Below are positions 12,001 to 15,000 of a stretch of 46,178 nt of DNA, in pieces; positions within the stretch are counted from its first letter, which is position 1; every line of letters starts with the position of its first letter. Origin of the DNA: Candidatus Micrarchaeota archaeon (lineage in GTDB: Archaea > Micrarchaeota > Micrarchaeia > Anstonellales > Bilamarchaeaceae); contig JBDRIM010000005.1 of NCBI GenBank assembly GCA_043816005.1, positions 1 to 46,178 on the forward strand, in the 5' to 3' direction. Position numbers: made by a program.

Positions 12001-15000
12001 AATTTGAAAAAGAATTTATGCCTGCACACCACGATGAACCTGAGGTTAGAGTAGAAATATCAAATAGGTATATATGGGTAGAACAAGCAACACTCGTTAG
12101 GATACAAGAAAATTTGAATAAAATTAGTTCTATTAATTCAAAAATACAACTTAAAAATGCTGAGAGACAGATTAGGACTTTTGGTGAGGAGGAGGAAGGA
12201 TATTTCAACAATCTCCAGCAGGAATATCTTTTTTTACTGAAGGAACAAGACGAATTATTGAAAGGATATTGGGATGAAGAAAAGATCTCAGTAATGGTTT
12301 GATTAGCGTTTGGGATAGTTCTTCATCATAAAAAAGCTTCCACATTCTTCTCTTTCTTATCTTGTTTTTCTTCAAATTCTTTTGCTTGAATATGCAACGG
12401 TGCACCTTTTTCACGTTTTAGAGATTTTCTGTCACGTACTGAAATAAAAATCGGATAGTTCACAGCAGCACCAACAATTATTGCTTCTCCAACCTTAAGC
12501 CCAGTAATGCTTTTTGCAACCCGTGAATCAATACCCTCAGAACTCATTTGTATATGGTCAAGATCATTTGGATTGGTCACTCTTAGAATAATATGAGTAT
12601 TGCATTGGCTAAGTGCAGTTGTACTCAGATTCACAGGTCTTTGACTTATGAGGCATAAAGAAGAACCAAATTTTCTCCCTTCGCGTGCAATTGTCTCGAT
12701 TATAGCTCGTGAAACGACTTCACTTTCTTCTGCTTTTTGTTTTGCAAAATTATGAGCTTCTTCTATTAACAATAAGAATGGTGGAATTTTGCCTTTTTTC
12801 CGTAAATTGAAAAGCCTTCTAGCAATTAGTGAAACTAAAATTTGTTTTTTTCTTAAAGAATCAATTGAATTAAAATCAAGAATAAGCATATGACCCGGTT
12901 TGACCTGTGAAATTAGTTTTGGATTTTCTGTTTTTCTAGATAGGAAACGATAGCGTTTCAATTCATTGATGCTCCTTTTGAGTGCACGTTTCACTTCATC
13001 TTTTGAAACATCTGATGAATCGATAGTTGAAATAAGATCTTTGATATTGTAACCATCTCCATCTTTTTTTTCTGTTTTTAGCGAGGATAAAACATGCCGT
13101 AAAACATCACGCTGGGGTGCAGAGAGATGAGGTAACCACTCACTCATTATTTCAGGGTGAATTTTTGTTAACGGAACAGAAATTTCGTTTCCTTCGATAA
13201 TAGTTGTTTTTGAACCAAACACAGGGTCGTGTGCAAACCCACAATATTCTCCATGAATGTCAATTATTACAACTGCCACTCTACCATCTTCTTTTTTTCT
13301 CATGAGTAATTCTTCAAGAAGAACACTTGCAAGATGTGATTTCCCGGCTCCTGACATTGCCAGGATGGCAAAATGTTTCTGAAGAAGCCTTGTTAGTGAG
13401 ATGGTTGCTGGAATGTCATGATGTTCAATTGAGCCAAGATGAAGTCCTTTTTCTTCAAAACCAAGAAATATTTGTAATACTGCATTTTCTGCGAGTTTAA
13501 CCTTTGCCCCTGGTGATGGTGGTGTAAATGATCTTTCGAATTTTTTATCAGTAAAAGTACCTAATATTTTTACCACTCCAATAACATGTTCCCAAGAATC
13601 TGAGGGGAATTGGGAGGGAATTGGGGTTGTGCGCTCAAATTCAGCAACGCTTTCTGCTCGCTCAAAATAACGATTTGATTTGAAAACTTCAGAAATAAAA
13701 CCAAATAGGATGCCATTGCCATGTTGTACTTGGACGTACTGACCCTTTTTGATGCATTTTTCTTTTACAACAAATGAAAATTCAGATGTTGATGGTGATT
13801 CTTCAGTAGCTAATATGACTCCCAAGGATTCGTTCATGGAAGTAATTAGTAAGGGAAATTAAAAAGTCTAGCGGCGCAATGTTTGTGATCCATTAGTTTG
13901 TCCTGGACCAGAACGACCAAGTTTTTTTACATCAACAGCAGTTGGTCCTGTTGGTTTTGGAATGAATTTATCAGCAGAACTACCACGAAGCTTTGGAATA
14001 GCAGAACCTGGAGGAAGTTGTTCTTCCCTCACCGTATCACTATCATAGCCTCCATCTGGATTTAACTTTGCAACAAATGTTCTTGTTGGATTTGGACCTC
14101 TTTCAAAGAAGAATAATGTTGGTTCTTTTGGAACTGATGCACCATCTTGGACAGTAGTAGCATCAACAGGCAGACGTTCAGTTGTATGAACGCTGTTAAA
14201 GCCCATTCTAGCAAATGTTTTTCTGTCTGGGGGGTCTGGATAAAATGCAACACCGATTGCAGCAGAGCTAAATGGACTAGTTCTTGATCCAACGATTAAA
14301 TAGGCATGATTCATATCGGTCATTCTAACACCAAATCTAATTGATTATAACAATGGTAGTATTTATAAAGATGTGTAACTACTCAAAATTTAATCTAGCG
14401 AATTTCATGAATTTTGGTTCTTCTCCGTCAACAATCGCAATTGCCAATTCTTTTCGCAATCTTCCGGCTGTTTCCAAAGATGGGGTTAACGTTTCAACAG
14501 ACGCTTTCCAGGTTTTTGGAACAACTTCGATAAGATAATAAGTTTTATCTTCTCCAGGACGCACGCCTTTGCGATGAAGTCGTAAAAATGAAGTGCCATC
14601 TAAACTTGGCCTAACAATATATCCTCGGTCACGAAGATATTTTATTACATGATATTTTTCAGCACAAAGTTTATCTTTTTTTGCAGCGTACTGTAAAAGT
14701 TCATCTTTTGGAACTGGTAATACACCACGATCTGCAAAATAAGCTGCCTCGAGAAATGTTATTTTTGTCTCGTTTTCGTCTTCAACACCTGCACCAAGGC
14801 TTCTGAGCTTAAGTATAAGTGATTTTTGTCTTATTATGAGAAAATCATCTGTAAATTCAATTTCTTTCATTATAAGATTAGCACAACGAATATTATAAAA
14901 ATAAGAGCAGTAGTAATTCTTGGAGAAGATTATGATAATTGCATTTACTGATGGCGCTTCAAGCGGAAATCCAGGTCCAATGGGAATAGGAGTAGTTATT

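Follow-up and report, generated by a model that had tools for sequence, protein, structure and literature searches.

Archaeal splicing endonucleases are a textbook example of how duplication, fusion and the loss of catalysis can turn one fold into several subunit architectures. The Tyr-His-Lys catalytic triad of EndA is defined in PMC3488258 (in excerpt), where the ARMAN-2 mutants Y236A, H251A and K282A were each unable to remove introns. The same excerpts define the D-x-E residues of the ARMAN-2 L10 loop, describe the role of the Arg/Trp position in RNA recognition and report that the N-terminal unit of the ARMAN-2 enzyme lacks the triad. This enzyme (4fz2, 9w2k) is of the epsilon2 type and cuts strict and relaxed motifs alone in vitro (PMC3239211, PMC3488258, both in excerpt). 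Structural beta subunits, which include NEQ261 of N. equitans (3iey_B/3if0), the crenarchaeal subunits and the EndA-like protein of M. kandleri (5x89), are non-catalytic EndA paralogues with a gene of their own. In eukaryotes, the non-catalytic Sen15 and Sen54 have the same fold and serve in assembly and RNA recognition.

Here, we describe a small EndA-like protein that is encoded in a window of 46,178 nucleotides, the whole stretch analysed, from a Candidatus Micrarchaeota archaeon (contig JBDRIM010000005.1). Like the beta subunits it is a paralogue, probably non-catalytic, with its own gene, and like the N-terminal unit of ARMAN-2 EndA it lacks the triad. Unlike the ARMAN-2 units, it has a gene to itself and forms its own lineage in the tree. 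The accessible passages of published work on ARMAN-1/2 and Mancarchaeum mention no second EndA-like gene, and in the literature searched no account of a small EndA-like protein without the catalytic histidine was found.

The small gene, its family and its fold

The first-pass annotation had reported a separate EndA homologue of 163 residues, and the reading frame, the family match, the alignment to a solved EndA and the fold model all bear this out. Conservation was followed in three samples: the 120 closest cluster representatives, which are 67-87% identical to the small protein, 45 genome copies (from 44 genomes, G081 having two) and 88 non-identical diverse members. The features of the gene are listed by their positions in the window; the counts refer to the 120 close homologues.

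14379..14870, minus strand: gene of the 163-residue EndA-like protein (P0001), an open reading frame with an ATG start; the stop codon at 14379-14381 is counted in
14676..14870, minus strand: N-terminal domain, about residues 1-65 (boundary approximate), as judged from the model's secondary structure; G26, E41 and Y44 are conserved here
14598..14600, minus strand: Asp91, aligned to the pocket Lys (ARMAN-2 K228, epsilon enzyme K227); D in 120/120
14574..14576, minus strand: His99, at the catalytic Tyr position (ARMAN-2 Y236) in the 1a79 and MAFFT alignments; H in 120/120
14544..14546, minus strand: Lys109, aligned to the catalytic His (ARMAN-2 H251); K in 113, R in 7
14451..14456, minus strand: Arg139-Lys140, with Lys140 aligned to the catalytic Lys (ARMAN-2 K282); K140 in 120/120
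14421..14429, minus strand: acidic loop D148-G-E150, aligned to the D-x-E of L10 (ARMAN-2 D357, E359)
14385..14411, minus strand: C-terminal strand F154-F162, where EndA has its subunit-pairing strand, as aligned to canonical small EndAs; the model has a strand at 152-157

The protein matches the Pfam family PF01974 (tRNA_int_endo), which models the C-terminal, catalytic domain, over residues 70-150 with an E-value of 7.2e-12 and 45.7 bits (cut-off 27). The 1.26-Mb assembly holds three matches to this family, two in the gene of the epsilon enzyme and one in the small gene, and none in any other gene. By HMMER, the closest solved relative is the M. jannaschii EndA 1a79 (E 2.8e-13, residues 9-150). 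The equivalog model for endA, TIGR00324, gave 42.6 bits, below its cut-off of 59.6. In contrast to the known beta subunits, the small protein had no match at E <= 1 to the NCBIfam beta-subunit models NF007085 and NF007086. The profile of its own family also scores catalytic subunits above known structural ones; the alpha half of the M. kandleri protein reached 79.7 bits and the beta half 40.1 bits, and NEQ261 gave an E-value of only 6.7e-10.

The model (pLDDT 93, pTM 0.88) predicts the two-domain EndA fold. Its top Foldseek match was 1a79_A (TM 0.80/0.77, E 4.6e-11, 29% identity), followed by the structural subunit 3iey_B (NEQ261) of N. equitans (TM 0.74/0.79, 26% identity). The small protein shares its length class and two-domain fold with the alpha subunit of the alpha4-type EndA of M. 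jannaschii, its best match in sequence and fold. Common to both are the motifs L.EA.Y, RG[YF].V, an FR.Y-type motif, G.RPGE[DG] and the C-terminal strand. Sen15 and Sen54 gave weak fold and profile matches, and one copy from family f15 had a sub-threshold Pfam Sen15 match (E 0.0012). This similarity is distant, and common descent beyond the fold is unsupported. Entries in public databases call it 'hypothetical protein', 'tRNA-splicing endonuclease' or 'tRNA-intron endonuclease family protein' where the small protein is listed, names that mask the loss of the active site.

Residues of the former active site and the interfaces

The triad was mapped with a gap-free HMMER alignment to 1a79 and with MAFFT. 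In both, the columns of the catalytic Tyr, His and Lys are occupied by His99, Lys109 and Lys140. His99 is aligned with Tyr115 of M. jannaschii EndA, which we take to be the catalytic tyrosine. Compared with 1a79, the tyrosine is replaced by His99, the histidine by Lys109, the pocket lysine by Asp91 and the recognition arginine (ARMAN-2 R275) by Glu133, so that one of the two bulge-recognition residues is gone. R159 falls at the Arg/Trp position of RNA recognition. The basic pocket for the L10 loop, a Lys and an Arg, is incomplete, with Asp91 in place of the Lys and Arg97 retained.

The absence of a canonical active site had been claimed before by another route, which does not hold. The histidine of the 'GTHF' motif in the epsilon enzyme had been read as catalytic and as changed to serine in the small protein. 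This residue, H231, is not catalytic, and the triad of the epsilon enzyme consists of Y235, H250 and K281. Since the alignments have Asn at the 'GTHF' position in ARMAN-2 and Asp in M. jannaschii, a serine there is uninformative on catalysis. It is the residues at the true triad positions that uphold the claim. Separately, a PD-(D/E)XK-like reading of the motif 'PGEDK' was dropped because canonical EndAs carry 'G.[KR]PGE[DG]H'.

In the close family, the catalytic His is lost while the acidic L10-like loop and the pairing strand are kept, as in a beta subunit. The beta-like traits are the absence of the catalytic His, Asp91 for the pocket Lys, Glu133, the retained D148-x-E150 and R159, and the conserved C-terminal strand. 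Among the 120 close homologues, D148 is found in 105 and position 150 is E in 71 and D in 32; in the strand, F154 and K156 are found in 120, F157 in 119, F162 in 118 and R159 in 115. The loop is less regular outside the genus, as the MAFFT alignment of the genome copies showed. At the former active site, R97, K101, R104, K/R109, R139 and K140 form a strongly basic cleft.

With modest confidence, we lean towards the small protein being a conserved, non-cleaving pseudo-enzyme derived from EndA that binds RNA and/or serves as a structural unit. Since the catalytic histidine is lost, the protein probably binds RNA or other subunits and does not cut. It would be a stand-alone paralogue that descended from an alpha-type (two-domain) subunit and lost the Tyr-His-Lys site, the pocket Lys and one bulge-recognition residue, but retained the fold, the basic cleft, the C-terminal pairing strand and the acidic L10-like loop. 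RNA, most plausibly bulged or BHB-like, may be bound through the cleft, and/or other EndA-type units may be bound through the strand and the loop. Cutting by the canonical mechanism would not take place. The protein might work alone, for instance as a homodimer, or on the epsilon enzyme.

Distribution and relation to the epsilon enzyme

The small protein had been counted in 4 of 8 genomes of its order and in 0 of 16 outside. This was an undercount. By profile search, at least 67 of the 201 Micrarchaeota genomes have a stand-alone copy, and 9 of these lie outside the order. It is present in all 38 genomes of family f1 and all 14 of f2, whereas the same search did not find it in any of the 56 f10 and 35 f11 genomes of the same class. 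Fused forms of at least 287 residues were not found at E <= 1e-15, which is weak evidence for their absence. Four long reading frames with the small domain in genomes of other families (G200 with 352 residues, G030 with 319, G150 with 310 and G039 with 217) were not accepted as fusions. Since their N-terminal parts had no extra Pfam domain, they were taken as over-extended reading frames.

In a tree of 74 rows, the small copies of f1 and f6 formed one clade (SH-aLRT 95), and the epsilon alpha units fell into a separate clade (100) among the canonical enzymes. Judged from this tree, the small protein is an old lineage and no recent copy of the epsilon alpha unit, to which it is 26% identical.

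The companion enzyme of 391 residues is encoded at G000:C64:47321-48496. Its earlier designation as a three-unit, epsilon-type enzyme stands, since residues 4-391 align end to end with ARMAN-2 EndA 4fz2 (E 1.9e-133). The residues of the epsilon2 type, Y235, H250, K281, K227, R233, D361, E363, R274 and W388, are all present, and the enzyme is of the same type as that of ARMAN-2. The partner of a known beta subunit is a small catalytic alpha subunit encoded separately, whereas here the sole catalytic unit lies inside a self-contained three-unit protein.

The first-pass annotation had regarded the small protein as a beta-like structural partner that joins the epsilon enzyme and widens its reach to D-loop and T-loop introns. 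Such a subunit, docked on the epsilon enzyme, would make a fifth composition with altered substrate reach in one large Micrarchaeota branch, which we consider unlikely. In detail, and this is equally doubtful, the acidic loop or the pairing strand would dock, and the basic cleft and R159 would hold the extra bulges of multi-intron pre-tRNAs. The beta-like part of the claim stood up, and the traits given above also count in favour of a docked subunit; the joining to the epsilon enzyme and the wider reach were not supported. An epsilon gene is present in each examined genome that holds a small copy, and PF01974 matches occur in 198 of the 201 genomes; since the epsilon enzyme is near-universal, the co-occurrence is uninformative.

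In 9 genomes (6/6 of genus g3 and 3/3 of genus g4) the epsilon gene has the small gene upstream of it on its own strand, which favours a docked subunit. However, this adjacency is a single event, shared by two sister genera whose clade has a support of 99, and it is the sole link of the small protein to the epsilon enzyme. The two genes are separated by 270-484 nt in seven of the nine genomes and by 1.7 and 2.7 kb in the other two; most of these loci have a metallopeptidase-like gene on the opposite strand in between. In the present genome, they are on different contigs. An RNase H-like gene, an N6/N4-type methylase, a bPH_2 membrane protein and a HerA-type ATPase are recurrent neighbours of the small gene; the bPH_2 gene is absent from the present window. 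These neighbours do not suggest an RNA-splicing operon.

The epsilon protein itself argues against docking. It has no vacant canonical interface, its alpha pocket (K227, R233) being served by its own L10 (D361, E363), as reported likewise for ARMAN-2 (PMC3488258, in excerpt). The triad, pocket and L10 residues, R274 and W388 are identical in 16/16 genomes with a small copy and in 19/19 where none was found, the reading frame L067 having been left out of the latter set as it is in the wrong frame. Between the two groups 5 minor columns differ, none of them a telling difference. A complex of two epsilon chains and one small chain, predicted from separate alignments and without controls, gave run scores of 0.72, 0.00 and 0.00 and counts neither for nor against binding. 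Against docking and a wider reach alike stand the broad specificity that ARMAN-2 epsilon2 already has alone (PMC3239211, in excerpt) and the f10 and f11 genomes, where the small copy was not found.

Across the assembly, ARAGORN listed only 14 tRNA genes, none of which lies inside the window, and it called an intron in 10; this low count is compatible with heavily disrupted tRNA genes. The listed sequencing runs included no RNA run; those with a share of the words, all 0.30 or less, were six DNA runs from groundwater or biofilm.

Conservation, rate of change and meaning

The close homologues share the near-invariant motif RPSLDGT.[YF]LRLHRKG.RPGEDKTYYL. Across the 88 diverse members, conservation is highest at G26, E41, R97, G102, E107, the basic residues at 109 and 139, and F162. 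G26 (88/88) and E41 (85/88) belong to the N-terminal domain, where Y44 is found in 75/88; the others cluster around the former active site or lie in the C-terminal strand. That the former active site is the best conserved part is unusual for a pure structural subunit and would also fit an active enzyme. In principle, His99, Lys109 and Lys140 might make up another acid-base set, which would run contrary to a pseudo-enzyme.

The small protein might accordingly be read as an active endoribonuclease with a rebuilt site, in which His99 would be the base and Lys109 (or Arg) the acid, together with Lys140. As a homo-oligomer, it would then work on substrates of its own, for instance rRNA processing stems or particular introns. 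Metal-independent RNases can function without a histidine, and within the genus the three residues show little or no variation in 120 sequences. Nevertheless, we regard this as less probable still than a docked subunit. The position of the general base varies in the family (among the 45 genome copies Y 32, H 8, N 2, Q 1, G 1, L 1; also F, W and S among representatives). Position 139 is basic in 88/88 diverse members, but K140 is retained in 75/88 and is L or M in 9/10 f2 copies. A complete Tyr-His-Lys triad is not retained family-wide in the 45 genome copies. The pocket Lys that the alpha4-type tetramer needs is replaced throughout f1 by Asp, Glu, Gly, Ser, Ala or Leu, and E133 stands for the lost bulge-recognition residue.

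Between genera, the small protein is 38-45% identical and the epsilon enzyme 51-60%; to family f2 the values are 26% and 62%. By these identities the small protein as a whole evolves much faster than the epsilon enzyme, and as a consequence it may play different roles from one lineage to another. The faster change and the lost histidine would suit a functionless, decaying paralogue, as had been considered earlier, but this is hardly credible, since the reading frames are intact in 45/45 copies, H99, K140 and D91 are invariant in the 120 representatives at 67% identity or more, the catalytic His position is fixed as basic in 45/45 genome copies (R 36, K 9) and in 88/88 diverse members (R or K) with no random residues, and the f1 and f2 genomes have all kept the copy.

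A conserved pseudo-enzyme is thus the reading that we prefer. A self-sufficient three-unit enzyme and a separately encoded alpha-type copy coexist in no fewer than 67 of the 201 Micrarchaeota genomes. Should the small protein in fact belong to the epsilon enzyme as an additional subunit, which seems improbable, archaeal EndA would have a fifth composition. Binding of BHB RNA without cleavage would make the small protein a novel type of accessory factor in organisms with heavily interrupted tRNA genes. If it is a reused relic of the ancestral alpha4 gene, the small protein would document the intermediate between alpha4 and epsilon2 that was sought by Fujishima et al. (PMC3239211, in excerpt).

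The small EndA homologue and its active site

PF01974 matches only two genes in the assembly (1.26 Mb, 86% complete), a small EndA gene in the window and the gene of the three-unit epsilon enzyme. They are listed here with two neighbours of the small gene.

14379-14870, minus strand: small EndA gene (P0001), ORF of 163 codons
14920-15348, plus strand: RNase H-like gene (PF00075, PF13456)
15314-16474, plus strand: N6/N4-type methylase gene (PF01555)
G000:C64:47321-48496 (same assembly): epsilon enzyme gene, 391 aa, aligned over its full length to ARMAN-2 EndA 4fz2 (E 1.9e-133)

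Upstream, the frame of the small gene extends to 331 codons and overlaps the RNase H-like gene on the opposite strand. The start was set at 14870, since the homologues, of 157-170 aa, begin at the same Met. Pfam tRNA_int_endo covered residues 70-150 (E 7.2e-12, 45.7 bits, cut-off 27), the NCBIfam endA equivalog reached 42.6 bits, under its cut-off of 59.6, and the NCBIfam beta-subunit models searched gave no match. The closest solved structure was M. jannaschii EndA 1a79 (E 2.8e-13, residues 9-150), with an alignment free of gaps around the active site. The M. jannaschii triad, which we take to be numbered Tyr115, His125 and Lys156, matches positions 107, 117 and 148 of the 1a79 chain at an offset of 8. 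An AlphaFold model, built with 63 family members in the alignment, was confident (pLDDT 93, pTM 0.88) and best resembled 1a79_A (TM 0.80/0.77) and the N. equitans structural subunit 3iey_B (0.74/0.79).

In the consulted parts of PMC3488258, each of the ARMAN-2 EndA mutations Y236A, H251A and K282A abolishes intron removal, D357 and E359 of loop L10 bind the pocket residues K228 and R234, and RNA is recognised by R275 and W384, the latter position being Arg in euryarchaeal enzymes. The alignments gave the following equivalents.

Functional positions of ARMAN-2 EndA, the epsilon enzyme and the small protein
Catalytic Tyr: Y236; Y235; His99
Catalytic His: H251; H250; Lys109
Catalytic Lys: K282; K281; Lys140 (kept)
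Pocket Lys: K228; K227; Asp91
Pocket Arg: R234; R233; Arg97 (kept)
Recognition Arg: R275; R274; Glu133
Second recognition position: W384; W388; Arg159
L10 D-x-E: D357, E359; D361, E363; D148-G-E150

The first-pass annotation had placed the catalytic loss at a His to Ser change in a GTHF motif. However, the His of KFGTHFRIY is H231 of the epsilon enzyme and not H250, and its position holds Asn in ARMAN-2 and Asp in M. jannaschii; the change to Ser is therefore irrelevant to catalysis.

Conservation and origin of the small-protein family

A word-indexed search with the small protein found 191 relatives of similar length. In the best 120 of these 191 (67-87% identity), H99, K140 and D91 were invariant and position 109 was always basic (113 K, 7 R); RPSLDGT.[YF]LRLHRKG.RPGEDKTYYL and a C-terminal P.F.KF.R.NF were nearly fixed. 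Representatives clustered at 50%, when searched exhaustively, yielded 183 matches (E <= 0.001). Alignment of the 97 with 125-235 aa revealed a broad family that shares 'R[VL]Y.KG.R.GED[RK]T', mostly retains the Tyr and has Arg or Lys in place of the His; canonical Y-H-K enzymes appeared as more distant matches.

From 44 genomes, 45 small copies were collected, 40 of them with flanking DNA. None of them had a His at the His position, where 36 had R and 9 had K. At the Tyr position, 32 had Y, 8 had H and 2 had N, while Q, G and L occurred once each. At the Lys position, 36 had K, and the 9 with L or M all belonged to family f2. Among 88 non-identical diverse members, positions 109 and 139 were basic in all 88, G26 and G102 were invariant, and E41, R97 and K140 were kept in 85, 83 and 75, respectively. 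The counts at the His position thus indicate that its replacement is fixed and directional. One f2 genome (G081) carries two small copies on two contigs, L039:922-1419 (plus strand) and L040:3046-3543 (minus strand), which lie close together in the tree described below (support 100); either the gene was duplicated or the bin mixes two strains.

The origin was analysed with a quick, unrooted maximum-likelihood tree (144 rows, 163 columns, LG+G4, SH-aLRT only). The f1 and f6 copies and metagenomic relatives formed one clade (95, 74 rows) with the f2 copies weakly beside it (43), the f18 and f23 copies grouped with two canonical Y-H-K proteins (94), and the alpha units taken from six epsilon proteins came out as a clade of their own among canonical enzymes (100). 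Given these separate clades, the small protein did not arise by recent duplication of the epsilon alpha unit; its gene resembles an old one of alpha type. The f18 copies, at L052:3961-4473 (plus), L053:4070-4591 (minus) and L054:4009-4530 (minus), match Pfam with E down to 2.4e-30 in genomes that have the epsilon gene elsewhere. They keep the Tyr, the Lys and the recognition Arg, have K, I or R as the pocket residue and Arg or Lys at the catalytic His, and so come closest to a working enzyme, with the His alone missing. This suggests, within an unrooted tree of limited support, that loss of the His preceded the other losses.

Distribution and gene neighbourhood

PF01974 was found in 198 of 201 Micrarchaeota genomes, and the frame that carries it almost always has about 385-420 codons; the phylum thus has the epsilon type as a rule, to which the small copy is added. 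A family-profile search listed a stand-alone small copy in at least 67 of the 201, a lower bound since fainter copies may have escaped it.

Genomes with a small copy, by Micrarchaeota family
f1 (this genome included): 38 of 38
f2: 14 of 14
f6: at least 6 of 8
f15 (outside the order Anstonellales): 3 of 3
f16 (outside the order): at least 2 of 3
f18 (outside the order): 3 of 3
f23 (outside the order): 1 of 1

Among the matches listed, there was none in f10 (56 genomes), f11 (35), f12 (6), f13 (6), f14 (10) or f17 (4). The counts take in two genomes flagged as unpublished, G198 and G029, both with epsilon only. Named records of Candidatus Bilamarchaeum dharawalense hold both genes, and Candidatus Anstonella stagnisolia has a small copy. 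An f15 copy, L061:1490-2107 (minus), showed a sub-threshold match to the eukaryotic Pfam Sen15 (E 0.0012, 19.6 bits, cut-off 22) adjoining its PF01974 match.

The RNase H-like gene overlaps the start of the methylase gene by 35 nt, and about 17-20 of the loci examined have this divergent pair next to their small EndA gene. In 14 loci, among them the ones in which the epsilon gene comes next, a gene convergent to the small EndA gene carries the 'putative phage metallopeptidase' domain:

L016:5472-5990, minus strand: PF18894 gene (E 1.5e-20)

Between the small EndA gene and a HerA-type ATPase gene lies a 151-aa ORF (13868-14323, minus) that has no Pfam match. Relatives have ORFs of 145-257 aa at the same place, and tblastn of the 240-aa one from L012 against the window gave no match; the 151-aa ORF is a rapidly evolving gene or no gene at all.

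Across the assembly ARAGORN detected 14 tRNA genes and called an intron in 10 of them, in one case of 1352 nt; no tRNA gene was detected in the 46-kb window. Evidently, the majority of tRNA genes escape the standard finder in this assembly.

Relation to the epsilon enzyme and possible functions

The small protein had been proposed as a beta-like partner of the epsilon enzyme in a fifth architecture. The consulted parts of PMC3239211, PMC3488258, PMC6379350, PMC5829648 and PMC12397907 record a single annotated endonuclease for each ARMAN genome and describe four architectures; they make no mention of another EndA-like gene accompanying the epsilon type, supplementary files and subscription papers being outside this scope. 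Micrarchaeota, 'splicing endonuclease' and EndA together gave no match in the literature searched.

A role as accessory subunit of the epsilon enzyme seems unlikely, although it is one of the two options that the data leave standing, beside a stand-alone pseudo-enzyme. In all six g3 and all three g4 genomes searched, the small gene precedes the epsilon gene and shares its strand; the gap is 270-484 nt in seven and 1.7 and 2.7 kb in two, mostly with an opposite-strand gene with a PhageMetallopep match in between. Since these genera are sisters in the tree (99), the adjacency counts as one event; outside them, as in this genome, the two genes are apart. The triad, pocket, L10 and recognition residues of the epsilon enzyme are the same in 16 genomes with and 19 without the small copy, only five minor columns differing, and therefore give no sign of a function handed to the small protein. 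ARMAN-2 epsilon2 alone is active in vitro on strict and relaxed motifs (consulted parts of PMC3239211 and PMC3488258). The small protein is 38-45% identical to its g3/g4 counterparts versus 51-60% for epsilon, and 26% versus 62% in f2; by these identities it evolves faster than epsilon.

That the small protein is an enzyme with a rebuilt active site is more doubtful still. Judged from the alignments, the cleft at the old active site remains basic and conserved, no complete catalytic set is maintained across the family as a whole, and canonical catalysis is very unlikely. A decaying gene is excluded by the data.

We lean slightly towards a pseudo-enzyme in general, whatever its partner. In one form of this reading the small protein would stand alone as an RNA-binding pseudo-enzyme, perhaps as a dimer held together by its conserved C-terminal strand. 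Within f1, an alpha4-like tetramer is argued against by the missing pocket Lys.
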